A stretch of 64,000 bases of DNA from Parcubacteria bacterium C7867-004 (GTDB lineage Bacteria; Patescibacteriota; Minisyncoccia; Phycocordibacterales; Phycocordibacteraceae). This document shows, piece after piece, positions 18,575 to 63,336 of the stretch (the stretch's first letter is position 1; every line of letters begins with the position of its first letter). The notes below the pieces were generated by a model. The model saw only the letters and a list, made by a program, of their open reading frames with translations. It was not told the origin of the DNA and made no database searches. Both the position numbers and the translations under genes were made by a program. The DNA is taken from positions 386,041 to 450,040 of the forward strand of contig LFCN01000006.1 of assembly GCA_001189075.1 (NCBI GenBank), read 5' to 3'.

Positions 18575-18620
18575 ACGTGTGTCTATGCATAGTATAGGAA
18601 CGCTATATACTTTCCATGAT

Positions 18621-39966: not shown

Positions 39967-41184
39967 ATGAAGCCTATTTCCTATACGGTAGAGACCAAAA
40001 GCGGCAGAGCCCGCACTGGCGTTATACATACGCCCCATGGCGATGTACAAACCCCTGCATTCGTTCCTGTAGGCACTAAGGCCGGGGTTAAGGGAATCCT
40101 CCCTAGTCAGCTTAAGGACCTCGGCGCTCAGGTAGTGCTCGCAAACACGTATCACCTCTACCTTCAGCCGGGAGAACAGGTGGTAAAAGGCGCGGGCGGG
40201 CTAGGGAAATTCATGGGATACGATGGACCAACCATGACGGACTCTGGCGGGTTCCAGGTGTTCTCACTTGGAAGCGCGTTCGGCCGCACCATAACCAAGA
40301 TCGCGAAAGGCGAAGAGAATGCGCGAGATCAAGGAGTTGCGGTTGTGGATGAGGACATGCGCAGCCAGCATGGACAGCTCGCGGTCATCGACGAAGAGGG
40401 TGTCACCTTCACCTCGCACCATGACGGCTCTCTGCATCGCTTCACGCCGGAACGCTCCATCGAGATACAGCATGCGCTCGGCGCGGATATGTTCTTCGCG
40501 TTCGATGAGTGCACCTCGCCAACCGAGCCGTACGAGTATCAGAAGGAAGCTATGGAGCGTACGCACAAGTGGGCATTGCGCTCACTCAAGGCGCATCGTC
40601 AGAATATCGAAGCTAATCGCTCGCAGGGCATATTCGGCATCGTGCAGGGCGGCAGATTTGAAGATTTACGAGAGGAGAGTGCCAAGGAGATCGCTTCGAT
40701 GGATTTCGACGGCTTCGGTATCGGCGGCTCCTTCAGCAAGGAGGACATGGAAGGAGCGCTCCAGGCTGCCGTGAAGCATCTGCCGGAAGAGAAGCCGCGA
40801 CATTTCCTCGGGATAGGTGAGCCGGGCGATCTCCTGCTTGGTATCGCGGAAGGTATGGATACCTTTGACTGCGTTGCTGCGACGAGACTCGGCCGCCATG
40901 GCTCCATTTACACGAAGAACGGACAGATCAATCTGAAGAACGAGAAGTATCGTTCGGATTATTCGTTACTGAACGAAGGTGGGGTAGCTATTCCGGGAAC
41001 CGAAGGCTTCACGAAGGCCTACGTCTCGCACCTTATCCGCTCGAACGAGATCCTCGGCCAGATAATTGCGTCTATGCACAATCTTGGATTCATCATTGCG
41101 CTCGTGGATGGTGCAAGGGAAGCGATACGGAACGGAACGTTCGAGCAGTATCGGGAGGATTTCAGTCGGGGATACTATGGCTAG
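39967..41184 (+). CDS. tgt: queuine tRNA-ribosyltransferase
   Basis: TPAFVPVGT, DSGGFQV, zinc-site residues near the C-terminus. Confidence 0.85.
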   Translation: MKPISYTVETKSGRARTGVIHTPHGDVQTPAFVPVGTKAGVKGILPSQLKDLGAQVVLANTYHLYLQPGEQVVKGAGGLGKFMGYDGPTMTDSGGFQVFSLGSAFGRTITKIAKGEENARDQGVAVVDEDMRSQHGQLAVIDEEGVTFTSHHDGSLHRFTPERSIEIQHALGADMFFAFDECTSPTEPYEYQKEAMERTHKWALRSLKAHRQNIEANRSQGIFGIVQGGRFEDLREESAKEIASMDFDGFGIGGSFSKEDMEGALQAAVKHLPEEKPRHFLGIGEPGDLLLGIAEGMDTFDCVAATRLGRHGSIYTKNGQINLKNEKYRSDYSLLNEGGVAIPGTEGFTKAYVSHLIRSNEILGQIIASMHNLGFIIALVDGAREAIRNGTFEQYREDFSRGYYG

Positions 41185-41231
41185 CCGGAGTCTTCTTTTT
41201 TATTTCATCCGGCAAAGGTAGACTGATACGA

Positions 41232-43298
41232 ATGGCCTTATTCAACCTCCACTCCCCCTTCCCGCCAGCAGGCGACCAGCCTGCCGCTATCAAGAAGCTT
41301 ACTGAGGGGATTGAAAAGGGCATGCGCCATCAGACGCTGCTCGGCGTTACTGGTTCCGGCAAGACCTATACGATAGCGAACGTCATCCAGAACGTGGGGA
41401 AGCCGACTCTCGTGCTCGCGCATAACAAGACGCTAGCAGCCCAGCTCGCGCAAGAATACCGCGAGTTCTTCCCGGAGAACCAGGTGCACTACTTCGTTTC
41501 CTATTACGACTACTACCAGCCGGAAGCCTACATCGCGCACTCGGATACCTATATAGAGAAGGAGGCGCAGATCAATGCGGAGATCGATCGTCTTCGTCAT
41601 GCTGCGACGCAGTCACTCCTCACTCGCAAAGACGTGATTATCGTCGCCTCAGTATCTGCTATCTATGGTCTCGGCTCGCCGGAGCAGTACGAGAAGGTAC
41701 ATGTGAAGCTGCAGGTAGGAGGGGAAGAGAATCGCGCGGCGCTCATCCGCAAGCTGGTGCGGATCTATTTCGAGCGCACGAATGCCGATCTTGAGCCGGG
41801 AAAGCTGCGGGCGGTAGGGAACGCGGTAGAGCTCATGCCGGTGAACGAGAGGGCGATCTACCGCATCACGTTTGATGAGGATACGGTCGCCGCTATAGAG
41901 TGCCTTGATCCGGTCTCACGCGCGAATACCGGCAATCCCGAATCCCTCTTCGTCTTCCCTGCCAAGCACTTCGTCTCAAGCGAGGACGAGCGCGCTCGTG
42001 CGCTCGAGGACATCAAGCGAGAGCTCGACGAGCGTCTCGAGGTCCTGAAGCGCGAGGAGAAGGTGCTTGAGCACGAGCGGCTCAAGCGCCGTACGCTCCA
42101 TGACATCGCGCTCATCCGAGAGATCGGCTACTCAGGTGGTATTGAGAACTATTCCCGCCATTTCGATGGACGTAGTCCTGGAGAACCGCCGCACACACTC
42201 CTTTCCTACTTCCCGCACAACAAGGACGGGAGCGCCGATTTCCTTACGGTTATCGACGAGTCCCACGTAACCGTCACCCAGATCGGCGGCATGTACGCGG
42301 GCGACAAGTCCCGCAAGGACATCCTCATCGAGCACGGATTTCGGCTGCCTTCCGCTCGTGATAACCGTCCGCTCAGGTTCGAGGAGTTCGAGGAGCGTAT
42401 CGGCCAGGTTATCTATACGTCAGCGACCCCAGGTAACTACGAGCGCGAGCACAGCGTGGCTCCGGATGGCCAGGTAGCGGAGCAGATCATCCGCCCGACC
42501 GGTCTCATCGATCCAGAGCTCATCGTCCGGCCTATCGTCGAGAAGGGAGACTACAAGGGCCAGATCGCCGACTTCATCCATGAAGCGGAGATAGTTATCA
42601 AGCGAGATGGACGTGCGCTTGCGACAACCCTCACCAAGCAGATGGCCGAGGATCTTTCTGAGTTCCTTAAGGAGCGCGGGATGAAGGCTGAATATCTCCA
42701 CTCTGACGTAAAGACGATCGACCGCATCGACATACTTACGAACTTCCGCAAAGGTAACTTCGACGTGCTGGTGGGTGTGAACCTGCTGCGCGAGGGCCTG
42801 GATCTTCCTGAGGTGGAGTTGGTCGGTATACTCGATGCCGACAAGGAAGGATTCCTCCGCTCGGAAACCTCGCTCATCCAGACCATCGGGCGCGCCGCGC
42901 GCAACGTGCTCGGTCGCGTGATCCTCTACGCGGACGTGATGACCGGCTCGATGGAGCGGGCGATAGGAGAGACCAACCGCCGTCGCACCATACAGCTCGC
43001 CTACAACGAGAAGCACGGCATAACTCCCCTCACCATCAAGAAGGAGATCCGCGACATCGCCGAATCGATGCGCAGCGAGCACCAGAAGACCGTACAGGGC
43101 ATGCTCGACCTCGACGCGAAGCTCTATGAGGAAGACCCGACTGGCTTCATAAAGGATAAACGCCTCCAGATGGATGCAGCAGTAGAGGCGCTCGATTTCG
43201 AGACCGCGGCGATCCTGCGGGATGAGATCTATGAGCTTGAGGGAACGCCAAACCCGAACAAGAAGAAGAATCCTCGGAAGAAGCGATTCGGCTCGTAA
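41232..43298 (+). CDS. uvrB: excinuclease ABC subunit B
   Basis: GDQPAAI...LLGVTGSGKT (helicase motif I), C-terminal UVR domain (AAILRDEIYEL). Confidence 0.9.
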   Translation: MALFNLHSPFPPAGDQPAAIKKLTEGIEKGMRHQTLLGVTGSGKTYTIANVIQNVGKPTLVLAHNKTLAAQLAQEYREFFPENQVHYFVSYYDYYQPEAYIAHSDTYIEKEAQINAEIDRLRHAATQSLLTRKDVIIVASVSAIYGLGSPEQYEKVHVKLQVGGEENRAALIRKLVRIYFERTNADLEPGKLRAVGNAVELMPVNERAIYRITFDEDTVAAIECLDPVSRANTGNPESLFVFPAKHFVSSEDERARALEDIKRELDERLEVLKREEKVLEHERLKRRTLHDIALIREIGYSGGIENYSRHFDGRSPGEPPHTLLSYFPHNKDGSADFLTVIDESHVTVTQIGGMYAGDKSRKDILIEHGFRLPSARDNRPLRFEEFEERIGQVIYTSATPGNYEREHSVAPDGQVAEQIIRPTGLIDPELIVRPIVEKGDYKGQIADFIHEAEIVIKRDGRALATTLTKQMAEDLSEFLKERGMKAEYLHSDVKTIDRIDILTNFRKGNFDVLVGVNLLREGLDLPEVELVGILDADKEGFLRSETSLIQTIGRAARNVLGRVILYADVMTGSMERAIGETNRRRTIQLAYNEKHGITPLTIKKEIRDIAESMRSEHQKTVQGMLDLDAKLYEEDPTGFIKDKRLQMDAAVEALDFETAAILRDEIYELEGTPNPNKKKNPRKKRFGS

Positions 43299-43319
43299 GC
43301 GCGTGATACCATACGCGTA

Positions 43320-44402
43320 ATGACTTTGCGGGTCTATATCGGCGTCGTGCTTCTGTGCGTCCTCATCGTATCGCTCGGCTTCATCGGCGCGACGATTCTC
43401 TTCCTGAACAAGGAGCTCGCGATGCTGCTCACCACCTCCGTGGAGGCAGAAGCGCTGCGCACTCTGCTACTCGGCAACGCCGCGCTATCGATCATCTTCT
43501 CGGTCGTGATGATCGGGTTCTTGTTCTGGGTTATCGGATGGGTGGTAGCGCATCCGCTCCGTCTCATCGTGTCCGCGATGCGCGAATTCTCAGAGACGGA
43601 GAAGCCGGTCGAGCTTCCGTCCTTCAGGACCGCACCCGCGGAAGTGCGCGAGCTTGCCTCGGCGTTCACGACTTTCTCGCAGCGGGTCGGCGAAAGCCAT
43701 AAGCGGGATCAGGAAATCTCTCGGGTGAAGTCAGATTTCATATCCACTGCGGCCCACCAGCTACGCACCCCGCTTACGGGCATCCGCTGGGCACTCGAGG
43801 CGCTGCAGAAGGAAGCCCTCACGGATTCGCAGAAGGCGCTGCTCGGAAGCGCAACCGAGAAGAGTCATCAGCTGGTGGCGATCGTGGGAACGCTTCTTGA
43901 TATATCGGCGATCGAGTCGGGCAAGTACAAGTACGTGTTCGAGAACGTGGACGTAAACGCGTTCCTCGCCCAGATAGCGAAGGATTTCCAGCCGATGGCG
44001 CTTGAAGCCAAGATCTCGCTTTTCTTCGAGCAATCAGAGAGCGAGGTATTGCAGGTGCGAGCTGACCGCGAGCGGATCCGATGGGTCTTGAATAACCTCA
44101 TCGAGAATGCCATCCGCTATACCCCCGCAGGAGGCCGGGTGCGTCTTACGACCGAGTCCTCGCAGCAGCGCACTTTCATTCATGTCGAAGACAACGGCAT
44201 CGGTATCGCGCCGTCCGACCAAGGGAATATCTTCGAGCGGTTCTACCGGGCGCCGAACGCTATCGCAAAAGAGAACGGCGGCAGCGGTCTCGGCCTCTAT
44301 ATCGCCCGCACCATCGCTACCGATCACGGAGGAGATCTTAGCTTCACCTCGAACGCAGCCGGCCACGGCACGACGTTCACGTTGTCACTTCCCGTAACCT
44401 AA
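43320..44402 (+). CDS. sensor histidine kinase (2 TM, HisKA, HATPase_c)
   Basis: H-box SDFISTAAHQLRTPLT, N-box NLIENAIRYT, G-boxes DNGIGI and GGSGLGL. Confidence 0.85.
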   Translation: MTLRVYIGVVLLCVLIVSLGFIGATILFLNKELAMLLTTSVEAEALRTLLLGNAALSIIFSVVMIGFLFWVIGWVVAHPLRLIVSAMREFSETEKPVELPSFRTAPAEVRELASAFTTFSQRVGESHKRDQEISRVKSDFISTAAHQLRTPLTGIRWALEALQKEALTDSQKALLGSATEKSHQLVAIVGTLLDISAIESGKYKYVFENVDVNAFLAQIAKDFQPMALEAKISLFFEQSESEVLQVRADRERIRWVLNNLIENAIRYTPAGGRVRLTTESSQQRTFIHVEDNGIGIAPSDQGNIFERFYRAPNAIAKENGGSGLGLYIARTIATDHGGDLSFTSNAAGHGTTFTLSLPVT

Positions 44403-44410
44403 CCCTACCC

Positions 44411-44998
44411 ATGGAAAAACCCGTCATAGATGCAATTGCGCTCGACGCTTCATTGCCGCTCGATCTGTACGAGGAGAAGCCGATAGGGACCATGAACATG
44501 CCCGACGGCAGGAAGCTGCATGCCGTGCTCGGTCTCTCAAAGACCCATGCCGAGAAGCTCAAGGAACGATCTTTGGATGAGCAGGATCAGGATCTACAGC
44601 GCAATACGTCCGATCGGGAACGGTTCGGTCTGGGCTCGTACGAGGATTGGTACGCGAAAGGACGCTATCCGTTCGCGCTTATCGATGAGAACGACAATCT
44701 CGCGGCGCTCGTGTGGCTAGGGCATGTACCGAACCCGCTCCCGTCGGATGTCGGGTCGTCGCTATGGGACACCATCGCATTTCGTGCCTATCCGCCGTAT
44801 CGAGGCCAGGGAATCATGTCGCCATTCAGCCGCTTCGTGCTCCGGACCTATGAGGTTATGGCACCCGGACGGTCTATCTGGCTTGCCACCGATCAGTCGA
44901 ACGAATCGGGAATCGCGCTCTATACGAAGCTCGGGTTCGTGGACCGGGGACATGCCGAACGGGAGTCTCGGCGTATACTTGTGCTCGAACGAATGTAA
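44411..44998 (+). CDS. GNAT-family N-acetyltransferase
   Basis: The C-terminal Q/RxxGxG/A-like core and GIALYTKLGF fit the GNAT motifs A/B. Confidence 0.55.
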   Translation: MEKPVIDAIALDASLPLDLYEEKPIGTMNMPDGRKLHAVLGLSKTHAEKLKERSLDEQDQDLQRNTSDRERFGLGSYEDWYAKGRYPFALIDENDNLAALVWLGHVPNPLPSDVGSSLWDTIAFRAYPPYRGQGIMSPFSRFVLRTYEVMAPGRSIWLATDQSNESGIALYTKLGFVDRGHAERESRRILVLERM

Positions 44999-45005
44999 CG
45001 CACTC

Positions 45006-46163
45006 ATGTCACGTGTAAAGCTAACCGAATACCGCGCGAAGTCCCTCATCCTCGGTGAGGGATATCGAGGTGTATCGCTTAGAGCTTGCGATGCGGTCCA
45101 GTTCCCGAGCGGCGCGAAGCTCGTGCTCAAGGTGGATCAGGGCGTGAAGAAGCGCATGAAGCAGGGACTGGTCGCGGTAGGTATCGAGGCGACCGAGATA
45201 CCGGTCTTCATTGACGAATGGTCCTCACGCGGCTACTCGAACTTCATAGTCGAAGAGCTCTTCCCGCACGAAGAAAAGGAAGAGCAGTACCTGAGTCTTG
45301 AGCGGGTTCGGGACGGCTACCGGCTCCTCCATGCCGCCGAGGGCGGTATCGATATCGAGGAGCATCCGGAGAAGGTGACGAAACTCGTCGCATCCGGAGA
45401 AGGAGTAGCAACGGCGTTCGCGGAAGCTACCGGTCTTCCGGAAACCTTCCTGCAGGACCTGCTCGATTGCTTCGCCACAAAGCACTTCGCGTTTGTCGAG
45501 ATAAACCCGCTTGTTGTGCGCGGCACTGAGGTGTATCTCCTTGATGCCGCGGTTCTTGTTGATAGTGCCGGGCAGTTCTCAGTTAAGGACGCGTGGAGCG
45601 AATCAGACATTCCGGAGAAGAACGCGGCGCATGCGGCTGAAGCTACCGTTGCCGCTCTGCAGAAGACCACGCCTGCATCGCTTAAGCTTACGGTGCTCAA
45701 TCCGGATGCCAGCCTGTTCTTCCTTCTCTCCGGAGGCGGCGGCAGCATCGTGATAGCGGATGAAGCGGCACTACGGGGCGCAGGGAACGAGATAGGCAAT
45801 TACGGAGAATACAGCGGCGGACCGACGCGCGAAGAGACCTACCTCTATGCGAAAGAGGTTATCGCGCTCCTGCTCGCTTCCAAAGCAACGAAGAAGGCAC
45901 TGGTTATCGCCGGCGGCGTTGCGAATTTCACCGACGTCGGCAAGACGTTCGCGGGCATTATCGACGCTCTGTCCGAAGAGGTTTCCCGACTTCAGACAGC
46001 AGGAGTGAAAGTATTCGTCAGGCGGGGGGGACCGAACGAGAAGGCGGGACTTGCGCACATGCGATCCTACCTTGAAGAGCACGGACTGCTGGGAAGCGTG
46101 TATGGGTCCGATACGGTTATTACACAGGCGGTTGATGATGCTGTAGATTTCATACAAGGCTGA
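45006..46163 (+). CDS. ATP-grasp beta-type subunit of an ATP-citrate lyase / succinyl-CoA-synthetase-family enzyme (AclB-like)
   Basis: N-terminal LTEYRAKSL (compare SucC NLHEYQAK), ATP-grasp fold, C-terminal ligase-CoA domain (VLVIAGGVANFTDV). 385 aa. Confidence 0.6.
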   Translation: MSRVKLTEYRAKSLILGEGYRGVSLRACDAVQFPSGAKLVLKVDQGVKKRMKQGLVAVGIEATEIPVFIDEWSSRGYSNFIVEELFPHEEKEEQYLSLERVRDGYRLLHAAEGGIDIEEHPEKVTKLVASGEGVATAFAEATGLPETFLQDLLDCFATKHFAFVEINPLVVRGTEVYLLDAAVLVDSAGQFSVKDAWSESDIPEKNAAHAAEATVAALQKTTPASLKLTVLNPDASLFFLLSGGGGSIVIADEAALRGAGNEIGNYGEYSGGPTREETYLYAKEVIALLLASKATKKALVIAGGVANFTDVGKTFAGIIDALSEEVSRLQTAGVKVFVRRGGPNEKAGLAHMRSYLEEHGLLGSVYGSDTVITQAVDDAVDFIQG

Positions 46164-46164
46164 T

Positions 46165-47949
46165 ATGACACTACTTGATTCGATACGAGCGGGTGAACGC
46201 GGCATACTGGTCTCCGGTATTCACCTGCAGGTGATCCAGTCGATACTCGACTTCGATTATCTCTCCGGAAAGGAACGATCGATACTCGGTATTGTTGCGG
46301 GAGGCCGCAAGTCCGTGAAGCTGTTCTGGGGACCAGAGGAGTTCCTCATGCCCTGTTTTGCTTCCTTTGCTGACGTGCCGGAACAGTTCCGCGCCCAGGT
46401 CCGGTTCCTGCTGAACGTGCAGTCGGGACGGCGCGCGTACGAGTCCACCGTGGCATTCTTTGAAGCTTTTCCCGAAGCATACGGTGCACATATCTTCGCG
46501 GAGAATGTGCCTGAAGCAAGCGCGACCATGCTCATCGAGCAGTACGGAAAGACAAAAGTGATTGCAGGGCCCTCAGGGGTAGGGTTCGTTGTTCCGGGAC
46601 TGCTTAAGCTCGGCGCGATCGGGGGAGTCGATGCTACTCAGTTGTGGACGAACAAGCTCATGACTTCCGGATCGGTCGCAGTAGTCTCAACGTCCGGCGG
46701 TATGACGGGCGAACTCATCAACGCGGTTGCGGGAGCGGATAAGCGTCTCTCGTTCGCCTTCTGTATCGGCGGCGACCGCTTCCCAGTTACGGCGCTCTCC
46801 GAGGTTCTCAAGCTCGCTCAAGAGGATCCAAGCACAAAAGGTATCGCGTACTTCGGCGAGCTCGGCGGCGTAGACGAGTACGAGATCGTGGAACTCATCA
46901 AGAGCGGAACGCTCACGAAGCCGGTAGCGGCCTATATTGCCGGTATCATCGACGAATCCTTCGAGGAGCACGTCCAGTTCGGACATGCCAAAGCGCTGGT
47001 TGCGACTAATGACGAAAGTGCGCGAGCCAAGCGCGAGGCGCTGCGGGCTTGCGGAGTTGATGCGCCTGATACGTTCCCAGAATTTCTTGAGGCGCTCAAA
47101 AAGCTGCCGGGTGCCGATCACAAGGATGTTCCCGTCGATATCGCTCCCTTGCTTTCCCGTCGCTCAAGTATCCTCTCGACGCGGGAGATCATCGATCTCA
47201 AAAGCATTCCGGTATTCGTCGCAGAGGGGAAGTTGGTTACGCCTGAAACGGGCTTTATGTCAGCCGTAACGGGCGCGCTTCTGGGTCGCCCGCTTACCTC
47301 GCCTATTAGCCAGGCATTCTTCGAAGCGGTTGCGACGCTCCTTATCGATCATGGCGGGAATGTTTCTGGCGCTGTGAACTCCATGATAACGGCGCGTGCC
47401 GGAAAGGATCTGGTTTCGTCGCTCGTGAGCGGTCTCTTAACGATAGGTCCGCGCTTCGGAGGAGCTATCAACGAAGCGGCAGGGCTCTGGCTTACTGGAG
47501 CGCAGGGGGGACTTTCAGCAAGCGAATTCGTTACGCTCGAGACGAGTGGTGGACGAGTTATTCTCGGTATCGGCCATAAGAAGTATCGCGTGGGTATGCC
47601 GGATCCACGCGTAGCAGCGCTCTCGGAATTTGCGACGCTGCTCGATTCCCATCCGCACTATGACTTCGCTCGGAGTGTTGAAGCGGTAACTATCGGAAAG
47701 AACGGCTCGCTCATACTGAACGTCGATGGCGTTACGGCAGCACTTGCGCTCGATATCCTCAGCGAGTGCGAAGGATATACCCGTAGCGAGCTGACTGCGC
47801 TCAAGGATGCGGAGTTCTTCAATGCGCTCTTCATTCTTCCGCGGAGCGCAGGCTTCATGGCCCACATACTCGAACAGAAGCGCAACGATGAGGGCCTCTT
47901 CCGTCTCCCGGATAATCTCCTGTACACTCGCCCAGCTGGCGAGGAATAG
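46165..47949 (+). CDS. CoA-binding alpha-type subunit fused to citrate-synthase-like (citryl-CoA lyase) domain (AclA-like)
   Basis: Starts 2 nt after the beta subunit. SucD-like CoA-binding/ligase part, and C-terminal GIGHKKYRVGMPDPRV resembling the citrate synthase GxGHxVY...DPR signature. 594 aa. Confidence 0.55.
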   Translation: MTLLDSIRAGERGILVSGIHLQVIQSILDFDYLSGKERSILGIVAGGRKSVKLFWGPEEFLMPCFASFADVPEQFRAQVRFLLNVQSGRRAYESTVAFFEAFPEAYGAHIFAENVPEASATMLIEQYGKTKVIAGPSGVGFVVPGLLKLGAIGGVDATQLWTNKLMTSGSVAVVSTSGGMTGELINAVAGADKRLSFAFCIGGDRFPVTALSEVLKLAQEDPSTKGIAYFGELGGVDEYEIVELIKSGTLTKPVAAYIAGIIDESFEEHVQFGHAKALVATNDESARAKREALRACGVDAPDTFPEFLEALKKLPGADHKDVPVDIAPLLSRRSSILSTREIIDLKSIPVFVAEGKLVTPETGFMSAVTGALLGRPLTSPISQAFFEAVATLLIDHGGNVSGAVNSMITARAGKDLVSSLVSGLLTIGPRFGGAINEAAGLWLTGAQGGLSASEFVTLETSGGRVILGIGHKKYRVGMPDPRVAALSEFATLLDSHPHYDFARSVEAVTIGKNGSLILNVDGVTAALALDILSECEGYTRSELTALKDAEFFNALFILPRSAGFMAHILEQKRNDEGLFRLPDNLLYTRPAGEE

Positions 47950-47967
47950 GAGTGGTATACTTTTGAT

Positions 47968-48375
47968 ATGACCGACGCCCCAAAATCCATCCTCGTTGTC
48001 GAGGACGATCCTATACTTAAGAACCTCCTCGGGCATACGCTCGCGGGCAAGTATGAGACGCTCTATGCCTCTGACGGCGCAGAAGCGCTCAAGCTCTTTG
48101 AGGAGCACAAGCCCGTACTGATTTTGCTCGATCTCATGCTCCCGACCATGAATGGCTTCGAGGTTGTCGAGACGCTCAGGAAGCGAGAAGACGAAGGCAA
48201 GACGGTTCCCGTTATCGTTGTGTCTAATCTCGGCCAGATCGGTGACAAGGAGAAGGCAAAGACACTTGGCGCAACCGAATACCTCGTAAAGGCGGAAGTC
48301 TCTGTTGAAGAGATTGTCGCGAAGATGGAGAGTTTGCTCGCTGCGGCCCCCACTCCGGTAGCGCCAACAATGTAG
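47968..48375 (+). CDS. single-domain response-regulator receiver protein (CheY-like)
   Basis: ILVVEDD...LDLMLP (phospho-acceptor Asp) ...VVSNL...K. Confidence 0.85.
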   Translation: MTDAPKSILVVEDDPILKNLLGHTLAGKYETLYASDGAEALKLFEEHKPVLILLDLMLPTMNGFEVVETLRKREDEGKTVPVIVVSNLGQIGDKEKAKTLGATEYLVKAEVSVEEIVAKMESLLAAAPTPVAPTM

Positions 48376-48449
48376 CTTCATTCGTTCTTCGTCTTCTGTG
48401 CTATAATACTTGTGTACCTGCCCCGCCACGGGCAGGACATTTCCGTACT

Positions 48450-51116
48450 ATGGCGACTGCAAAGAAACCTCATCCCAAGACCGGAGACAAGCATCACGCG
48501 AGCGCGGACGAATGGATCCGCGTGAAAGGTGCCCGTACCCATAACCTCAAGAACCTCTCTACCGAGTTCCCTCGAGGAGCGATGACGGTTGTTACCGGAC
48601 TCTCTGGTTCCGGCAAGTCCTCCTTCGCCTTTGATACTGTATTCGCCGAAGGACAGCGCCGGTATGTCGAGTCTCTTTCAGCGTATGCGCGTCAGTTCCT
48701 CAACCAGATGCAGAAGCCGGATGTGGATGAGATTAGCGGACTCTCGCCCGCCATTTCCATAGACCAGAAGTCCCGTTCCAATAACCCGCGCTCCACCGTT
48801 GCGACCGTTACCGAGATCTATGACTACCTCCGCGTGCTCTATGCGCGCGCCGGTCAGCCGTACTGCGTGAATCACGATGTCGCTATCGAGAAGCTCTCGA
48901 AGGAAGAGATGATCCGCATCGTGCAGGAGCATGTAAAGGCCCGCACCGATCTCAAGGCGAAGGACGAGGTTATGGGCGTTGCGGTCGATAAGACGGCGAT
49001 AGCTATCTATGCGCCGGTTGTGGTGGGCCGTAAGGGCGAGTATTACCAGCTCCTCTATGATCTTCTCGGCAAAGGCTATGAGAAGGTGCTTATCGACGGG
49101 AAGCCCCATGCGCTCCGCGAGAAAGTAGAGCTCGATCGCAACAAGCGCCATGATATCGATGCCATCGTCGATACCATTTACGTATCCGAGTTTGAACGCA
49201 GCCCTGATGCAGCTCGTGAGCGTCTCTCAGAGGCCCTTGAGCTCGCGCTTAAGGAAAGTGATGGGCTCGTTAAGATAAAGCACGCAGACGGGGAGATTGA
49301 GACCCTCTCGGCGAAGTTCATCTGTCCGGATGACGGCACCTCGTTCCCGGAGGTTGAGCCACGCCTCTTCTCATTCAATAGCCCGTATGGCGCGTGTCCG
49401 AACTGTAACGGTCTCGGTACCAAGTCGCTCTTCTCTGACGAGCCGTGCCCAGTCTGTGAAGGGAAGCGATTGCGTCCCGAAGCGCTCCGTGTGTATCTCT
49501 CGGGCAAGAAGAATCCGAAGATCAACAACGGCCTGGGTATCAATGTCGTCGATTTCACGAACTTCTCCATCCGCGAAGCGAAGGAGTTCATGGACCAGCT
49601 CGAGCTCTCGGAGATGCGCATGGAGATCGCGCGTCCGATTATCCGCGAGATAACGAGCCGTCTCGATTTCATGCTGAACGTCGGTCTCGACTACCTCACG
49701 CTCAACCGCTCAGCGGCGACGCTCTCTGGCGGCGAGGCGCAGCGCATCCGCCTGGCGTCCCAGCTCGGTACGGGACTTGTTGGCGCGCTCTATGTGCTTG
49801 ACGAGCCGACGATCGGTCTCCACCAGCGGGATAACGATCGCCTCATTCAGACCCTGCTTACGCTCAAGGAACTCGGCAATACCATCCTCGTGGTCGAGCA
49901 CGATGAGGACACTATCTATGCTGCCGACTACCTCCTCGATATTGGTCCGGGAGCGGGTGTTCACGGCGGGAACGTCGTTGCTGAAGGATGGCTCGAAGAT
50001 CTCCTCACCGCACCCAAGAACGATAGCGGTTCGCTTACCCTTTCATACCTGCGCGACGAGACGAGAATCGAGATCCCTGAGGAACGTCGCACGAGCGAGA
50101 AGGGCTCTATCAAGGTCCGTGGTGCGACTCTGCATAACCTGAAGAATCAGAACGTCGACATTCCACTCGGGAAGCTCGTCTGTATAACGGGTGTGTCCGG
50201 CTCAGGCAAGTCGACCTTCCTTTACGACGTGCTGCATAAGAACGTTGCTGCTCGTTTCGGCAAGCGAGAAGCGAAGCTCGAGAACTGCGCGTCGATGACC
50301 GGCACCGAATACCTCGGCCGTGTCGTCCTTATCGACCAGTCCGCTATCGGCCGTACCCCGCGCTCGAATCCCGCGACCTATACGGGTGCGTTCACGCATA
50401 TCCGCGATCTGTTTGCTGCAACGTCTGAGGCTCGTGCTCGCGGTTGGAAGCCGGGACGTTTCTCCTTCAATGTCGCCGGCGGCCGCTGCGAAGCGTGCCA
50501 GGGTAATGGAGTTATAGCGGTCGAAATGCACTTCCTTCCGACGGTGTATGTGGTCTGCGATGTCTGCAACGGCACCCGATTCATGAAAGAGACGCTTGAG
50601 GTCACCTTCAAGGGCAAGAATATTTATGAAGTACTCCAGATGACTATCGAAGAGGCCGAGGTGTTCTTCAAGGATATCCCTGCGATCTCTGACCGTCTCG
50701 AGTCGCTGAACGCAACCGGACTCCAATACCTCACACTCGGACAATCAGCGACGACGCTTTCCGGCGGAGAGGCGCAGCGGGTGAAGATCGCGTCTGAGCT
50801 CTATCGCCCTATCACGATGAAGACGCTCTACCTGCTCGACGAGCCGACCGTGGGTCTTCATTACGAAGACGTACGTAAGCTGCTTGAGATCCTGCAGGAG
50901 CTGGTTCGTCGCGGAAACACCGTCGTTGTTATCGAGCACAATCTCGATATCGTGAAATCCGCCGATTATCTCATCGACTTTGGTCCGGAAGGAGGTATCA
51001 AGGGCGGGAAAGTCATTGCGAAGGGAACGCCGGAGGAAGTTGCGGAGATCGAGGACTCCTTTACGGGCGAATACCTCGCCAAGATATTCAAGAAAGCTAA
51101 GAAGCGCGCGAAGTAG
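48450..51116 (+). CDS. uvrA: excinuclease ABC subunit A
   Basis: Two ABC ATPase modules (GLSGSGKSS and GVSGSGKST), LSGGEAQR signatures x2, Zn-finger Cys clusters. Confidence 0.95.
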
Positions 51117-53228: not shown

Positions 53229-54203
53229 ATGCGTGGAACGGTCGTCGGAGTATTGCGGGGCGGTCCATCTAAGGAGCACGAAGTGTCGCTTGCGACCGGT
53301 CACGCCGTCATCACGAACCTTCCCGAGGACCGCTTCACGGTAAGGGATATTTACATAGACAAGGACGGTATCTGGCATGAGCGTGGGCGGCCCGTGATGC
53401 CGGCGAATGTGCTCCCCTCGATGGATGCGGTTGTTGTGGGGCTGCATGGGGAATACGGAGAGGATGGGGAAGTACAGAAGCTGCTTGAGCGGTTCGGTGT
53501 TCCCTACACCGGCTCGGACTCATTCGGTTCGTACCTCGCAATGCATAAGGTGCTTTCCAAGGAGCGCGCGAAGGAGATGGGACTGCTCACCCCGAAGTAT
53601 CGATTCATCGAACGAGCTGACGATGCAGAAGCTATTGCGCAAGACATCATCCGTTCGTTCCATCAGCCGGTTGTCGTAAAGCCGATTCGGTGGGGTTCTT
53701 CAGTTGGCATATCGATTGTCGGCGGATACCAGCCGGTGCATTCGGCGATCCTTGAGCTTCTTGAGGCTGGAGCAGGAGGAGTGCTCGTCGAGGAACTTAT
53801 TCGCGGTACGGAAGCTACGGCAGGCGTCGTTGAGGGTCTTCGCGGTGAAGAGCTCTATATGCTCCCGCCGATTGAGATCATCCCGCCCAACGGCAGCTTC
53901 TTTTCGTACGACGTGAAGTATTCGGGGGCTACAGAGGAGATCGTACCGGGCCGCTTCCAGAAGTACGTGCAGAACGACCTCATGAAAGCGGCAAAGACCA
54001 TGCACGAAGCACTCGGACTTAGGCATTATTCCCGCTCCGACTTTATCGTCTCTCCTAAGGGCATCTATTATCTCGAGACCAATACGCTTCCCGGCATGAC
54101 TAAGGAATCGCTTCTCCCTAAATCGCTCGCTGCCGTCGGCGTTTCGCTCCCCGACTTCCTTACGCACGTGGTTGATCTCGCGCTAACCGGAAAGAAACGA
54201 TGA
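53229..54203 (+). CDS. ddl: D-alanine--D-alanine ligase
   Basis: N-terminal GGPSKEHEVSL, ATP-grasp motifs, LETNTLPGMT near the C-terminus. Confidence 0.85.
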   Translation: MRGTVVGVLRGGPSKEHEVSLATGHAVITNLPEDRFTVRDIYIDKDGIWHERGRPVMPANVLPSMDAVVVGLHGEYGEDGEVQKLLERFGVPYTGSDSFGSYLAMHKVLSKERAKEMGLLTPKYRFIERADDAEAIAQDIIRSFHQPVVVKPIRWGSSVGISIVGGYQPVHSAILELLEAGAGGVLVEELIRGTEATAGVVEGLRGEELYMLPPIEIIPPNGSFFSYDVKYSGATEEIVPGRFQKYVQNDLMKAAKTMHEALGLRHYSRSDFIVSPKGIYYLETNTLPGMTKESLLPKSLAAVGVSLPDFLTHVVDLALTGKKR

Positions 54204-54532
54204 GCGAGTACAGTGACAAGAAGTGCGTACCCTGCGAAGGCGGATTTCCGGCACTGACGCTCGCGCAGGCGCAGGATCTCATGGAGCATGCACCAGGCTG
54301 GAGCCTGAACGAGGCAGGTACTGAGATCCATCGAGACTATGCGTTTCCAGACTTCGCTACCGCGCTTTCGTTCGTGAACGAGGTAGGTGCGCTTGCCGAG
54401 GAGGAGGGTCATCATCCCGATATCACGCTTAGCTGGGGCAAGGTAGGAATTACCCTCACGACGCATTCAATAGGGGGACTCTCTGAGAACGATATTATCC
54501 TTGCGGCCAAGATAGGGCTTTTGCAGCCGTAA
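54200..54532 (+). CDS. pterin-4a-carbinolamine dehydratase
   Basis: EEGHHPD catalytic motif. ~110 aa. Confidence 0.8.
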   Translation: MSEYSDKKCVPCEGGFPALTLAQAQDLMEHAPGWSLNEAGTEIHRDYAFPDFATALSFVNEVGALAEEEGHHPDITLSWGKVGITLTTHSIGGLSENDIILAAKIGLLQP

Positions 54533-54565
54533 CGGGTATGGTATAAATCATACGTTCCCGAATAG

Positions 54566-54638
54566 GGGCCGTTAGCTCAGTTGGTAGAGCATCTCATTTG
54601 CAATGAGAGGGTCGCAGGTTCGAATCCTGTACGGTCCA
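54566..54638 (+). tRNA. tRNA-Ala (anticodon UGC), G3:U70 present, no encoded CCA
   Basis: Hand-folded: acceptor gggccgt/acggtcc with G3:U70, D arm gctc-agttggta-gagc, anticodon loop uuUGCaa, T arm gcagg-ttcgaat-cctgt, discriminator A. Confidence 0.85.
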
Positions 54639-54672
54639 CATTTGTTCACGAAGTCAAGGTTTCCGTCATTCC

Positions 54673-54710
54673 GTATTGGCGCGCTTAAGTTTCGGGAGGT
54701 TCTAATCTCA
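54673..54710 (+). repeat. left imperfect direct repeat flanking AT-rich islet
   Basis: gtattggcgcgcttaagtttcgggaggttctaatctca compared with 56901-56938 gtattggccgcgattcaatgaggggagttctaatacga. The gtattggc(c)gcg and gg(g)ag(g)ttctaat blocks are shared. Confidence 0.45.
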
Positions 54711-56900
54711 CAGAACCTAAAAACGATAAGAATGGTATTTTATGCTCATTCCTAGGATGAGAATCTTAAAATATTTTCGGCAAAAGTTTGGAGATAGAAG
54801 GCAACAAAAAGTTGTACCTTCTCTTAACGAGAAAGTTGTATGTATTACAACGCGAGACAACTACATTCTTCCCGCTCTCGTTTCCTCATATTTTTCCTCA
54901 AAAACTGAATACTTTAGTTTATTTGTATTTCCCAATATTGATGCTCCTTACGAGGAGTATATTGAAATGAGTGGGGAGAAGTTTGTGGCAAAGCTCATAG
55001 GGCGTGAAGCAAAGGTTCTTTTTAACAATGCTTTCTTCAAACTTAAGCCCAAGCGCTACCTCTTAGTAGGTCTAAATGAAGCAGAGAAAACCTACTTTGA
55101 TTCTCTCTCTCCAAAGAAGAAGATATTTATAGATAACGAAACTGAAATCCAAGAGAAACTCAAGTCTCTTAAGAAGAAACCGAGACGAGAAATCCGTTGC
55201 AGGGAGTCTGACTTACTAAAGGGTTTGTACATAGCAAAACAGAAGAAACTTGCATTGGTAATAGACGAGAACGCAAAGGCAATAAATGTTAGGGATTTCC
55301 TTAGTGTGAGCACAGGAATTCTGGTTATTGAAGAAGATAAGAAAGCAACAGATATTGTCGCTATTAACTTAGCTCACGCTCTTAATTCTGATATTGCGAT
55401 TGTTGAACCATTCAACGAAGACAGAAAGGAGCTAACCACGCTCCAGAAAGACATCTATAAATGGAAGAAAGGTGGAGATAACGAAGCTCATGCGAGAGTG
55501 ATTAAACTCTTGGGAGACAGATTAAACGGAATAGATTTTAGCCCATATCACTACGCAACATTCTTCACAGACGGACTTCCATACTCGTTGGTATTGGAAA
55601 AACTATCCATTTCTTACATCAACCCAAATCTGAGATGTGATTTGTTTATATTCAATGAACTTTTTTCTCAATATGACAAACAAACAGAGGGGGTAATCGT
55701 TTTCTCTCCTGAAGAATTTGGACAGAAAGAGGAGACTCCTTTCGTTGTAGCAACTCTTAAGAAGTTAGGATTCTATGTAAAAGAACTCATTGGCAAGAAC
55801 GCAACTGTACATAATTTTGAGCATTATTCTCAACATTATCCTTACGATTTAATGCACATCTGTAGCCATGGTGGACAAACAGATGGATATTTCGCAATAG
55901 AGAAATTTACGGACAGAGATGGTAAAGAACATACCGTCGAGTATGAGGAGGTTGTTGGCTTCTCTCCTGTGCCAGGGAAAGATCTAATAGCAGTTAGCAG
56001 AAAAGCATTCTTTAAGAGATTTGATGGTTTTGAGTGGATGAGCCCAGAACTCAAAGCTCAGCATATCCCGAGCTATATCTTCGAAGACATGACCCGCAAT
56101 CTTTTTTCAGGAGATGGCGGAGAGAAAGCGCAACGATTTCCTGCTAACTACCCCATAGCAAACTCTTGCCATATAAAGTGTTACGACAGTATCCATCAAG
56201 GCACAATGCAGTCTATTGCTTTGTACAATCATCCCATTATTTTCAATAATACCTGCTGTTCGTGGCATGAGATTTCAAACTTCTTTATTACTGCTGGCGC
56301 AAGAGGATATATTGGTACTCTTTGGTCAATTAAGAATATAAACGCCGTGAGAGCAGCGGCTTTTTTCTACTCAAAAATTCACGAGCTCAACATTGCTGCT
56401 CTATGCCGTTTAATGAATACCTTCCTTAAGGGAACGTCAGACGAGGGAGTGTATATGTACTGGGGATTACCTTTTTCAAAAGTTTATTTACCAACTTCAG
56501 AAAATAGTCGACTCAAAATTTTGGGAGAACTATTTTATGGTCTATGGAGATGGGTTGGTCATTATCGCTCCTTGCCAGAGGGAGAAGTGAGGAAAAACAC
56601 GAATGACGTGGTTCGTTTCATTCACAGTGAGATTGCAGGCAACTTCAAGCAGGAAGATTTAAAAGGCCTGATTGGAGACAAGGCATATAAAAAGTTGGAG
56701 ACCACTGTTGCTGAGGTACAAGCCAAAGCACCAAAAGAGAGCACAACTTCAGACACTGAAGCTTCTAATCTTGAAAGAGGAGCTATAGACCTTGGTACTG
56801 AATACCGAGGGAAGGAGGTTCTAATCTCCGAGCGTCTCTAGGCTCTCAAGCCCATTTTGATCCTTCAGACCATCCCACGAGTCCACTAGCCTAAGGAAAT
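54711..56900 (+). mobile_element. 2.2-kb AT-rich genomic islet (~38% GC vs ~58% flanks) inserted 3' of tRNA-Ala; no integrase
   Basis: Abrupt compositional shift visible in sequence, tRNA-adjacent position, flanking imperfect direct repeats, single cargo ORF. Confidence 0.55.
54742..56841 (+). CDS. caspase-like (CHAT/peptidase clan CD) His-Cys protease domain protein with ~330-aa unknown N-terminal region
   Basis: LMHICSHGGQTDGYF (His block) then ~125 aa later IIFNNTCCSWHEIS (Cys block). Spacing and context resemble the caspase/CHAT catalytic dyad. Lys/Ile/Asn/Phe-rich, AT-rich codons. Confidence 0.45.
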   Translation: MLIPRMRILKYFRQKFGDRRQQKVVPSLNEKVVCITTRDNYILPALVSSYFSSKTEYFSLFVFPNIDAPYEEYIEMSGEKFVAKLIGREAKVLFNNAFFKLKPKRYLLVGLNEAEKTYFDSLSPKKKIFIDNETEIQEKLKSLKKKPRREIRCRESDLLKGLYIAKQKKLALVIDENAKAINVRDFLSVSTGILVIEEDKKATDIVAINLAHALNSDIAIVEPFNEDRKELTTLQKDIYKWKKGGDNEAHARVIKLLGDRLNGIDFSPYHYATFFTDGLPYSLVLEKLSISYINPNLRCDLFIFNELFSQYDKQTEGVIVFSPEEFGQKEETPFVVATLKKLGFYVKELIGKNATVHNFEHYSQHYPYDLMHICSHGGQTDGYFAIEKFTDRDGKEHTVEYEEVVGFSPVPGKDLIAVSRKAFFKRFDGFEWMSPELKAQHIPSYIFEDMTRNLFSGDGGEKAQRFPANYPIANSCHIKCYDSIHQGTMQSIALYNHPIIFNNTCCSWHEISNFFITAGARGYIGTLWSIKNINAVRAAAFFYSKIHELNIAALCRLMNTFLKGTSDEGVYMYWGLPFSKVYLPTSENSRLKILGELFYGLWRWVGHYRSLPEGEVRKNTNDVVRFIHSEIAGNFKQEDLKGLIGDKAYKKLETTVAEVQAKAPKESTTSDTEASNLERGAIDLGTEYRGKEVLISERL

Positions 56901-56938
56901 GTATTGGCCGCGATTCAATGAGGGGAGTTCTAATACGA
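56901..56938 (+). repeat. right imperfect direct repeat flanking AT-rich islet
   Basis: See left repeat; about 28 of 38 positions are shared. Confidence 0.45.
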
Positions 56939-57071
56939 TGTACTAAAAACCACCCCAGAGGACAAGGCGCTGTAATCAAACAGTTTCGTTTACCTGTCCG
57001 CTCACGTACATTGACGAACGTTCAAGTCGTTATACTCTTACTGCTATAGCACTATCATCTCTGTACGACCT

Positions 57072-57545
57072 ATGAGCTTCGATAAGATTCCTACTGCGCG
57101 CCCTACACAGGCAACTGAATCGTTGCGGGAACCTATTCAAGAAGAGCTCGCTGCAAGGCTCGACGAGGTCGCAAAAATGAACAAGATGTCGCTTGAGGAG
57201 CTTCGGAGTGTACGACGCAGGGAAGACAGAGAACTCCAAACGACCTTTTTTGAAGGAACCATTGCTGGTGTACGTGTTGTTGCATGGAAAGATAAAGCTC
57301 AGACTGCGGCCCCGTGGAGCTCAATAGGAACGAACAGTTATATCTATCGTGCAACGGTGGATGGTCTTGAGGTTGCGTCGGATCTCGATAAGCCACAAAA
57401 ACTCTATTTAAAACTGTTGATTGCTAATAGCGATTATTCCCGCACATATCAAGAGTCCGGTATACCGATGCCCGAGTCCCCCGACGCAGAAGCCTTGGCT
57501 GACCAGGTACTTGCAACTGGTGTTCCAACGGAAGATCCTGAATAG
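57072..57545 (+). CDS. hypothetical protein (157 aa)
   Basis: Clean ORF. No motif recognised. Confidence 0.4.
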   Translation: MSFDKIPTARPTQATESLREPIQEELAARLDEVAKMNKMSLEELRSVRRREDRELQTTFFEGTIAGVRVVAWKDKAQTAAPWSSIGTNSYIYRATVDGLEVASDLDKPQKLYLKLLIANSDYSRTYQESGIPMPESPDAEALADQVLATGVPTEDPE

Positions 57546-57571
57546 GCTTTTCGTATGCAACCGGGCTTTCT

Positions 57572-58150
57572 ATGACCAACCGACCGCCAAGCCGCCAACC
57601 TATGCCGACTGATGCCGTACAAGTGTTCAAGGGCATCCTTTTTGACGTCTATCAATGGCAGCAGGAGCTGTTCGATGGCTCGTTCGCTACCTTCGAGAAG
57701 CTCAGCCGGAACGATTCGGCGGTTATTATCCCGATACTCCCGAACGGCAAGCTGTTGCTTGCGTATGATGAGCAGCCGGGACGCGACCCAGTGATAACGT
57801 TCCCGGGCGGCCAGGGAGAGGAAGGCGAGAGTTCGGAAGTAATGGCTCGTCGCGAACTGCTTGAAGAGACCGGATATGAGGCGGACGAACTCATACTGCT
57901 TCGTGCCAGCCAGCCTTCCTCGAAGATAGACTGGGCGATCTATACCTTCATCGCTCGCGGTCTCCGGAAAGTGCAGGAAGCAGAGCTAGACGCCGGGGAG
58001 CGCATTACGCTGCGCGAGGTGACGCTCGACGAGCTCATCGACATGGCCGAGGATCCTCTGTTCCAGAACCGGGAACTCGTTATCGACCTGGTGAAGGCGA
58101 GGTATGATACAGAGGCACGCGCTTCCCTCGAGAAGCTTTTATTCGGCTAG
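57572..58150 (+). CDS. NUDIX hydrolase
   Basis: Nudix box GGQGEEGESSEVMARRELLEETGY. Confidence 0.75.
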   Translation: MTNRPPSRQPMPTDAVQVFKGILFDVYQWQQELFDGSFATFEKLSRNDSAVIIPILPNGKLLLAYDEQPGRDPVITFPGGQGEEGESSEVMARRELLEETGYEADELILLRASQPSSKIDWAIYTFIARGLRKVQEAELDAGERITLREVTLDELIDMAEDPLFQNRELVIDLVKARYDTEARASLEKLLFG

Positions 58151-59074: not shown

Positions 59075-60373
59075 ATGCGCACCGATATCGTCCATCCGGG
59101 AGCTGATAAGCTCCGCTACGAGATCCGGCGCATCGTCGAGGTAGCTAAATCCGTACAGGCGCTCGGCACCCCGATTATCTGGGAGAATATCGGCGACCCG
59201 GTAGCAAAAGGCGAGCAGGTGCCGGAATGGATAAAGGAGTACGTGAAGAACGCAGCGAGCGAGAACGCTTCGTTCGGCTACTCACCGACGCAGGGTCTCG
59301 ACGTCGCACGCGACTACATCCGCGATGAGCGGAACCTTGAAGACGGTATCAACATAACTTCTGACGACATCCTCTTCTTCAACGGCCTCGGGGACGCTAT
59401 CTCGACGCTCTACGGGAACCTGCACCCAAAAGCGCGCGTTATAGGACCGAATCCGGCGTACCCCACGCATTCCTCAGCCGAAGCCGCGCATGCGGACTCC
59501 GCACATATCACGTACAAACTAGATCCGGCAAACGGCTGGAAACCGGACCTAGAGGATCTACGCACAAAGATAGAGGCGAACCCTGACATTGCCGGCATCC
59601 TCATCATCAATCCGGATAACCCGACCGGTTTCGTGTATCCGGAAGAAACGCTGCGCGAGATGGTCGCAATCGCGAAGGAGCACAACCTCTTCATGATCTC
59701 GGATGAGATCTACTCGAACCTCGCATACGCCGGGAGCGGCATGAAGAAACTCGCCTCCGTTATCGGAGACGTTCCCGGTATCGCCATGCGCGGCATCTCG
59801 AAGGAGTTTCCGTGGCCGGGCGCACGCTGCGGCTGGGTGGAGTTCTATAACCGGGACAAGGACGACTCGTTCGACCGGTACGCCCGCTCTCTGCTCGATT
59901 CGAAGATGCTCGAGGTCTGCTCGACTACGCTTCCTCAGGCGGTCCTGCCGAGGGTAATGGGGGATTCGAGATACTATCCGTACCTCGACGATCGGGTCGC
60001 AAACTATGCCCGGAAGTCTGCAAAGGCGGTTGAGATACTCTCATCCATTCCTGAACTTGTCATTCATCCAGCACAGGGTGCCTTCTATATGACTGCAGTC
60101 TTCGCAGAAGGATCACTTACCGATACTCAGACACTTTCCGTTACTCCCGAAGCAGAAGCGGTTATCAATCCGCATCTAGCGGATGCGAGACCGGATCAGC
60201 GCTTCGTGTACTACCTCCTTGCCTCAACGGGAATCTGCATAGTCCCGCTTTCGCTCGGGTTCAATTCGGATCTGAACGGTTTCCGCTTCACGCTCCTGGA
60301 GTCGGATGAAGGGAAGTTCGAACAGATCGTATCGACGATCAGAGATTCTATCCAGACGTATCTCGCCTCATAG
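59075..60373 (+). CDS. class I/II PLP-dependent aminotransferase
   Basis: Fold-type I layout (about 430 aa) and the family's N-terminal pattern. A Lys-containing SKEF segment may be the PLP site. Confidence 0.65.
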   Translation: MRTDIVHPGADKLRYEIRRIVEVAKSVQALGTPIIWENIGDPVAKGEQVPEWIKEYVKNAASENASFGYSPTQGLDVARDYIRDERNLEDGINITSDDILFFNGLGDAISTLYGNLHPKARVIGPNPAYPTHSSAEAAHADSAHITYKLDPANGWKPDLEDLRTKIEANPDIAGILIINPDNPTGFVYPEETLREMVAIAKEHNLFMISDEIYSNLAYAGSGMKKLASVIGDVPGIAMRGISKEFPWPGARCGWVEFYNRDKDDSFDRYARSLLDSKMLEVCSTTLPQAVLPRVMGDSRYYPYLDDRVANYARKSAKAVEILSSIPELVIHPAQGAFYMTAVFAEGSLTDTQTLSVTPEAEAVINPHLADARPDQRFVYYLLASTGICIVPLSLGFNSDLNGFRFTLLESDEGKFEQIVSTIRDSIQTYLAS

Positions 60374-63051: not shown

Positions 63052-63087
63052 CGCCGGTCTCGATGCGGCTCCGGGATGGAGCATTAA

Positions 63088-63336
<249 letters not shown>

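Follow-up and report, generated by a model that had tools for sequence, protein, structure and literature searches.

Positions 45,006 to 47,949 of a 64,000-nucleotide stretch (hereafter the window) of contig LFCN01000006.1, from Parcubacteria bacterium C7867-004, a member of the candidate phyla radiation (CPR), carry two adjacent genes, aclB and aclA, whose products are, on the strength of their predicted domains and active-site residues, almost certainly the two subunits of a genuine heteromeric ATP-citrate lyase (ACL, EC 2.3.3.8). Together with a small GNAT acetyltransferase gene just upstream they form a conserved unit, and the linkage of the three genes leads us to favour, with a probability of roughly 60%, the reading that the pair cleaves citrate and so provides the acetyl-CoA with which the neighbouring GNAT acetylates its substrate. 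The identity of the genes is not new: a database protein identical to AclA, on a 686-kb contig, is already annotated as 'ATP citrate (pro-S)-lyase [Parcubacteria bacterium C7867-004]'. What remains of interest is the near-universal GNAT-aclB-aclA cassette and the 'split GlmU' context in which the GNAT occurs. Our literature search found neither described, and found no paper pairing GlmU with 'candidate phyla radiation' or with Patescibacteria and acetyl-CoA. The source genome (0.78 Mb, 56% GC) was recovered as a bin from the Hanford aquifer (PMC4508563); an identical sequence stands on contig DGYM01000008.1 of assembly GCA_002398375.1.

Both open reading frames (ORFs) are intact, tightly coupled and on the forward strand, as are the GNAT, kinase and receiver genes described below. 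The beta-subunit gene aclB (45006..46163) encodes 385 aa with the N-terminus MSRVKLTEY, its TGA ends at 46163, and a single base (A) separates it from the ATG of the alpha-subunit gene aclA at 46165 (46165..47949, 594 aa); the two adjacent frames are thus as the original prediction, made from the sequence alone, had described them. A longer aclB frame, from 44724, would overlap the upstream gene, and the start at 45006 corresponds to the N-terminus in 57 of 71 homologues as well as to the NCBI/JGI gene call. AclB consists of an ACL-type ATP-grasp domain (residues 31-197, 45096..45596; Pfam PF24948, 1.1e-28, 100.6 bits vs. a cut-off of 83) and an ACL citrate-binding domain (residues 209-381, 45630..46148; PF16114, 7.2e-52, 175.9 bits vs. 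26.8). In AclA, an N-terminal CoA-binding/CoA-ligase part (within 46165..47949; Ligase_CoA, 6.6e-11, 42.9 bits vs. 24.5) is fused to a C-terminal citrate-synthase-like citryl-CoA lyase module (approximately residues 367-594, 47263..47949; Citrate_synt PF00285, 6.4e-21, 75.2 bits vs. 27), which amounts to some 230 extra residues of citrate-synthase fold relative to the alpha subunit of succinyl-CoA synthetase (SCS). The ACL-like size and domain order that had been proposed for the pair are borne out by these domains, as they are by the best matches in the PDB. For AclB these are human ACLY (3e-56) and Methanosaeta ACLY (5.8e-56), followed by Chlorobium AclB (1.3e-35) and, far behind, citryl-CoA synthetase (CCS; 1.3e-9). 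AclA matches human ACLY over its full length (3.9e-97, human residues 500-1096) and Methanosaeta ACLY-B (8.7e-87), with weaker matches to Chlorobium limicola ACL (2.4e-48), CCS (2.5e-19), SCS-alpha (1e-16 to 3e-21) and citrate synthases (6e-9 or weaker). The C-terminal module does align with citrate synthase, with its His/His/Arg/Asp set intact, and the lyase module of human ACLY aligns with it much better still.

Residue correspondences to human ACLY were taken from HMMER alignments. AclA E113, H274, H396, H471, R482 and D521 correspond to human E599, H760, H900, H975, R986 and D1026, respectively, and are invariant in all 75 of 75 homologues. Alignment and translation place the predicted phosphohistidine, His274, at codon 46984..46986, within the loop G273-A277 (GHAKA, in the context QFGHAKA; 46981..46995). 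The GxGHxxY...DPR signature noticed in the original prediction is real: it is the citrate-synthase-type motif GIGHKKYRVGMPDPRV at 47566..47613, which contains H471 and R482, and the predicted catalytic base of the citryl-CoA lyase step, Asp521, has its codon at 47725..47727. On the AclB side, K42, R50, G271, N307-F308-T309 and R340 correspond to human K58, R66, G309, N346-T348 and R379, with conservation in 71-72 of 72 CPR homologues; human G309, N346, F347, T348 and R379 are the citrate-binding residues of ACLY. The GHAKA loop is shared by the whole clade of CPR-type ACLs, and the eukaryotic, Methanosaeta-type and Chlorobium-type enzymes have GHAGA or GHAGS; the lyase module of the CPR-type clade carries the signature GIGH[RK]KY...PDPR.

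The CPR-type enzyme is common. With AclA as the query, a database search gave over 7,000 relatives (E <= 1e-10), of which the best 120 are all CPR-type with 62-78% identity, the named ones being Patescibacteria, Paceibacterota or Kaiserbacteria; a comparison with 1.8 billion cluster representatives yielded only 121 clusters at 1e-30 or better. When a single genome was scanned for each species, there were 80 ACL loci, nearly all labelled Patescibacteria, with identities to the window of 56-78% in Paceibacteria, Kaiserbacteria and Uhrbacteria and of 48-52% in Saccharimonadia. ACL is widespread in Paceibacteria and Saccharimonadia. Two of the 80 loci are labelled otherwise, as Gammaproteobacteria and Gemmatimonadetes (L055 and L062); their 58-59% identity to the window, and the CPR-type synteny glmS-YvcK-GNAT-aclBA that L055 keeps, mean that these contigs are probably mis-binned or mislabelled. 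Neighbour-joining analysis of 55 full-length AclA representatives, with clades labelled via PDB matches, places the window AclA among the CPR-type sequences, one of which carries the name Dojkabacteria, with support from 100 of 100 bootstraps, and sets this clade apart from the eukaryote, Methanosaeta-type and Chlorobium-type groups. The presence of an ACL here had been called unexpected, which holds against textbook expectation only, since the enzyme is common in these classes and has been reported from them. Published accounts describe aclAB in metagenome-assembled genomes (MAGs) of Patescibacteria that carry none of the remaining genes of the reductive tricarboxylic acid (TCA) cycle (PMC9671151), an enrichment of aclAB in Saccharimonadia (PMC12577380), and a two-subunit ACL in a Gracilibacterium, proposed to turn imported citrate into acetyl-CoA and oxaloacetate (Sieber et al. 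2019, PMC6851277), in a paper that calls the enzyme "rarely detected in CPR". The occurrence of ACL outside the reductive TCA cycle in CPR bacteria, including the idea of citrate cleavage, is therefore already in the literature.

Of greater interest is the neighbourhood of the pair. In 71 of the 75 loci with upstream sequence aclB lies directly upstream of aclA, and a GNAT gene of one of two families adjoins aclBA in 66 of 73 evaluable species loci. The first family, c2, of about 195 aa, is the type found in the window, where its gene (44411..44998, 195 aa, with a RimJ/RimL-like fold) ends 7 nt before the start of aclB; the second, c3, of about 145 aa, is a classical GNAT (Pfam Acetyltransf_1, 5e-21). 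Each is found directly upstream and co-directional in 28 of the 73 loci, with gaps mostly of 5-13 nt for c2, so that 56 of the 73 have one or the other immediately 5' of aclB in the same direction, at gaps mostly of 4-16 nt. A further 10 have the GNAT elsewhere (just downstream of aclA, divergent at 42-46 nt upstream, or 0.6-1.6 kb upstream), and in 7 neither family was found; the GNAT-less ACL loci carry a hexapeptide-repeat transferase, sugar nucleotidyltransferases or a GDP-mannose dehydratase. The linkage is kept across at least four flanking syntenies, namely uvrB/uvrA, IleRS-RecO ... membrane protein-GlyRS, phosphoribosyl pyrophosphate (PRPP) synthase-YceG, and type IV pilus genes, and within the IleRS-RecO context genomes differ in whether c2 or c3 takes the slot. 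Because it holds across at least four such settings, GNAT-aclB-aclA is a conserved unit. The genes that recur beside it are otherwise of the housekeeping kind (IleRS, RecO, GlyRS, an AI-2E-type permease, PRPP synthase, YceG and the type IV pilus ATPase), with no conserved copy of malate dehydrogenase or phosphoenolpyruvate carboxykinase beside ACL. Two CPR classes among the species genomes include loci, 7 in all, where glmS adjoins the ACL cluster, as glmS-YvcK-like-GNAT-aclB-aclA in 3 Paceibacteria loci and as aclB-aclA-glmS in 4 Saccharimonadia loci, and in one locus the glycine C-acetyltransferase gene kbl lies directly upstream of aclB.

The partner gene can also be followed from its own side. 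A search of metagenome contigs with a c2 GNAT profile recovered 73 loci, with at most 4 kb of downstream sequence and less in many. In 8 of 63 loci glmS lies directly upstream of the GNAT, and it is present in 14 (TIGR01135, 776 bits vs. a cut-off of 418); glmM is directly downstream in 4 (TIGR01455, 498 vs. 447.6). Phosphate acetyltransferase (Pta) and phosphoketolase occur in 8 c2 loci (PF01515, 1.6e-89; XFP_N, 2e-181) and Kbl in 6 (NF005394, 577 vs. 460), so that three acetyl-CoA-forming enzymes or enzyme pairs, ACL, Pta plus phosphoketolase, and Kbl, adjoin the GNAT in different genomes. Direct contact of the c2 GNAT with Pta plus phosphoketolase or with Kbl is seen in L089, L090, L091, L136, L143 and L149, and in L104, L148 and L061; these genomes or loci lack ACL, save that L061 and L148 have Kbl together with ACL. 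In two Patescibacteria metagenome contigs, again at loci lacking ACL (L123:495-6836 and L151:1135-6529), a TrmB-like regulator, glmS, the c2 GNAT, glmM and a nucleotidyltransferase of 246-250 aa follow one another in this order, and a third (L150:508-3374), which begins just upstream of the GNAT, has GNAT-glmM-nucleotidyltransferase (245 aa). The nucleotidyltransferases of L150 and L151 match GlmU models only at positions 2-237 of 452 (4e-47 and 2e-61) and so cover the uridylyltransferase half without the acetyltransferase half. Considered together, these contexts suggest that the GNAT fills the acetylation step absent from a split UDP-N-acetylglucosamine (UDP-GlcNAc) pathway.

These observations suggest how the cassette might work. 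The steps of the ACL reaction are the established chemistry of the family. AclB would bind ATP through its ATP-grasp domain and citrate through its citrate-binding domain; His274 of AclA would be phosphorylated and hand the phosphate to citrate, giving citryl phosphate, on which attack by CoA would give citryl-CoA; and the C-terminal site of AclA (H396, H471, R482, D521) would then carry out the retro-Claisen cleavage of citryl-CoA to acetyl-CoA and oxaloacetate. As in the eukaryotic cytosol, citrate, here scavenged from the surroundings or from a host, would be turned into biosynthetic acetyl-CoA at the cost of one ATP, a direction that we infer because the organism has no TCA cycle and no lipid synthesis. 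The conserved gene linkage suggests that the acetyl-CoA would be passed to the small GNAT encoded 7 nt upstream. That GNAT, in turn, would catalyse the N-acetylation of glucosamine phosphate on the way to UDP-GlcNAc by a 'split GlmU' route, so that ACL would feed cell-wall precursors. This last part is the more tentative: gene context makes an amino-sugar phosphate (glucosamine phosphate, in the making of peptidoglycan precursors) a plausible acceptor, at somewhat less than even odds. A little more speculative again is the general scheme in which ACL, Pta plus phosphoketolase, and Kbl would be interchangeable acetyl-CoA supply modules, tied to a dedicated GNAT that replaces the acetyltransferase half of GlmU, with citrate from the host serving specifically to acetylate glucosamine phosphate for peptidoglycan. 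Some 11 kb downstream of ACL the window also encodes a pyridoxal phosphate-dependent aminotransferase (59075..60373; NCBIfam PRK06855, 634 bits, the next match being an alanine aminotransferase), a possible candidate for a user of citrate-derived oxaloacetate or pyruvate.

Several points weigh against the supply of acetyl-CoA from citrate to an amino-sugar GNAT. Neither the window nor the set of conserved neighbours includes a citrate transporter, the loop around the phosphohistidine reads GHAKA where GHAGA is usual, and our literature search found no CPR-clade ACL that had been assayed, nor any report of its expression. The linkage is one-sided: among the 62 c2 loci with sequence beyond the GNAT, aclB follows immediately in 19 and within about 1 kb in 6, and the remaining 37 (~60%) have none in the sequence available (4 kb at most), so the GNAT does not depend on ACL. 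The amino-sugar context is itself sparse, with glmS directly upstream in so few of the c2 loci and the string glmS-GNAT-glmM-glmU(N) in only 3 (L150 from the GNAT onward). Finally, the structure of the window GNAT, predicted with 13 database homologues in the alignment, has the GNAT fold and the acetyl-CoA-binding motif of the superfamily, but fold comparison favours the protein acetyltransferases of RimJ/RimL-like type and not the glucosamine-phosphate acetyltransferases.

The most serious competitor is a protein acetyltransferase. The GNAT would then be of the Pat/PatZ or RimJ/RimL type and would use or sense acetyl-CoA, with ACL still cleaving citrate; its targets would be the acetyl-CoA-forming enzyme itself, in a feedback like that by which Pat inactivates acetyl-CoA synthetase, or the N-termini of ribosomal or other proteins, and the cassette would serve regulation or protein modification rather than amino-sugar metabolism. 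A GNAT that lies beside one or another acetyl-CoA-forming enzyme would suit such a role, and the glmS, glmM and GlmU-type neighbours point instead to an amino-sugar acceptor; taking both together, we consider this alternative unlikely, if by no means negligible.

Much less probable is that the enzyme runs toward citrate, converting acetyl-CoA, oxaloacetate, ADP and Pi to citrate, ATP and CoA, and so acts in a fermentative cell as a citrate synthase that conserves ATP. Two things speak for this direction: the chemistry of ACL can be reversed, and these cells rely on substrate-level phosphorylation (PMC4508563). Against it stand the absence of a TCA cycle or of any other visible use for citrate, and the nature of the company the enzyme keeps: the conserved partner consumes acetyl-CoA and the partner's alternative neighbours produce it, which speaks for supply rather than disposal of acetyl-CoA.

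The original prediction had also raised a role in the reductive TCA cycle. ACL is a classical marker of that cycle, and metagenome pipelines count aclA and aclB as 'carbon fixation'. However, gene calls and Pfam searches reveal no further TCA or central-carbon genes in the 64-kb window, as the prediction had itself observed, and 2-oxoglutarate:ferredoxin oxidoreductase, fumarate reductase, pyruvate:ferredoxin oxidoreductase (PFOR) and the other enzymes of the reductive cycle are absent from the window and from 10 kb past each of its ends. What the window does hold is DNA repair genes (uvrB, uvrA, uvrC), TGT, tRNA synthetases and cell-wall genes including Ddl. The genome is only about 0.78 Mb; the genome paper describes Parcubacteria as lacking a TCA cycle and makes no mention of citrate (PMC4508563). 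Given also the Patescibacteria MAGs that carry aclAB and no other gene of the cycle (PMC9671151), and the position of the window AclA outside the Chlorobium-type clade of autotrophs, a reductive TCA role finds no support in the genes of the window and its flanks or in the literature, and we reject it. A carbon-fixation role for the pair is unlikely in a Parcubacterium of ~0.8 Mb without a TCA cycle, and it is very improbable indeed that the organism fixes CO2 by a reductive cycle in which this ACL would be the key enzyme. That the pair is an SCS, or a CCS with a separate lyase (the citryl-CoA synthetase/lyase alternative of the original prediction), wrongly taken for an ACL is barely conceivable: its homology to SucC/SucD and CcsA/CcsB is distant, the NCBIfam SCS and citrate-synthase models fall far under their cut-offs (SucC 41.7 bits vs. 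370, SucD 97.6 vs. 336), CCS matches both subunits far more weakly than does ACLY, the citrate-binding domain is exclusive to ACL, and the alpha subunit carries the lyase module on its own chain.

The cassette is flanked in the window by a membrane histidine kinase (HAMP-HisKA-HATPase, 43320..44402) and by a receiver-only response regulator (47968..48375, 135 aa; Pfam Response_reg, 1.4e-21). The pair had been described as sitting between the two, and Pfam supports both assignments, but the GNAT gene, which the original prediction did not mention, intervenes between the kinase and aclB. As core parts of the unit the two are rejected, being clade-specific flanks only: they accompany the cassette in just 6 of the 80 species loci, all close relatives of the window (L005, L006, L007, L014 and L053 have kinase and receiver, and L046 has the receiver 3.5 kb away). 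A kinase lies upstream only in the near relatives L003, L005-L007, L014 and L053, with a matching distribution of the receiver, and the next (sister) clade has uvrB-GNAT-aclB-aclA-uvrA with neither. A promoter and terminator scan of 41000..48600 gave no more sites than shuffled sequence, which fits a single tightly packed string of co-directional genes.

Farther from the cassette, the GC content dips to 0.43-0.47, vs. about 0.56, at 54001..58000. The dip contains an ORF (54742..56841, 699 aa) with only a faint CHAT-domain match, and PADLOC gave no match for it or for two neighbouring ORFs. The region may be acquired DNA, since the syntenic relative L003 carries different genes at this position. 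On the reverse strand, at 17570..18637, an ATP-grasp ligase resembling the C-terminal half of cyanophycin synthetase and the RimK family (TIGR02068, 5e-48, far below the cut-off) adjoins a 5-formyltetrahydrofolate cyclo-ligase. The last stretch of the window, from 62209 to 64000, holds the beginning of an F-type ATP synthase operon that is complete once the sequence past the window is included (L087:13135-19261).

Matches to aclA and aclB from the abundant Patescibacteria of groundwater and soil should not be counted as carbon fixation by the reductive TCA cycle in metagenome surveys. Beyond that, the cassette bears on where ultra-small symbiotic bacteria obtain acetyl-CoA and on what their hosts give them, and it offers a testable hypothesis, that citrate is converted to acetyl-CoA and this to an N-acetylated cell-wall sugar. 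If true, prokaryotes would have their own version of the link between cytosolic ACLY and acetylation known from eukaryotes, and the bacterium would depend on its host for a concrete metabolic input.

Among the characterized systems, the CCS and citryl-CoA lyase (CCL) of Hydrogenobacter thermophilus (PDB 6hxq, 6hxp) distribute the same chemistry over two enzymes, and all the modules are homologous to those of the window; however, the lyase is separate there and fused here, and the matches are weak (1.3e-9, 2.5e-19 and 5.6e-12). The AclBA of the reductive TCA cycle of the autotroph Chlorobium limicola (PDB 6hxj) is likewise heteromeric and has the same domains, but shows far lower similarity to the window pair than the ACLYs do (AclB 1.3e-35; AclA 2.4e-48, 28% identity), belongs to a different clade and serves carbon fixation, in contrast to the minimal symbiont-type genome here. 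Closest are the ACLYs of human and of Methanosaeta (Methanothrix) concilii (PDB 6hxh, 6poe, 6hxi), with the same order of ATP-grasp, citrate-binding, CoA-binding/ligase and citryl-CoA lyase modules; the window AclA is about 36% identical to the human enzyme over trimmed alignment columns, and the two-gene layout is that of Methanosaeta. The window pair differs from both in its separate, fully supported CPR clade, an AclB shorter by about 40 residues, GHAKA in place of GHAGA, a GIGH[RK]KY...PDPR motif closer to that of citrate synthase, and a host without TCA cycle or lipid synthesis. The CPR enzymes already in the literature (PMC6851277, PMC9671151, PMC12577380) are likewise ACLs without a reductive TCA cycle, and the role proposed for that of Gracilibacterium (PMC6851277), acetyl-CoA and oxaloacetate from imported citrate, is the same as the one favoured here; the Gracilibacterium enzyme, however, has a GHAGA loop and archaeal affinity, whereas the window type has GHAKA, forms a clade of its own and is common (80 species genomes), and the link to a GNAT goes unmentioned in those papers. 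As for that link, the candidate GNAT is RimJ/RimL-like and thus neither the left-handed beta-helix domain of bifunctional GlmU nor a close relative of eukaryotic GNA1, but in both of those routes an acetyl-CoA-dependent N-acetylation of glucosamine phosphate stands between GlmS and the uridylyltransferase, just where the GNAT stands in the related glmS-GNAT-glmM-GlmU-type loci.

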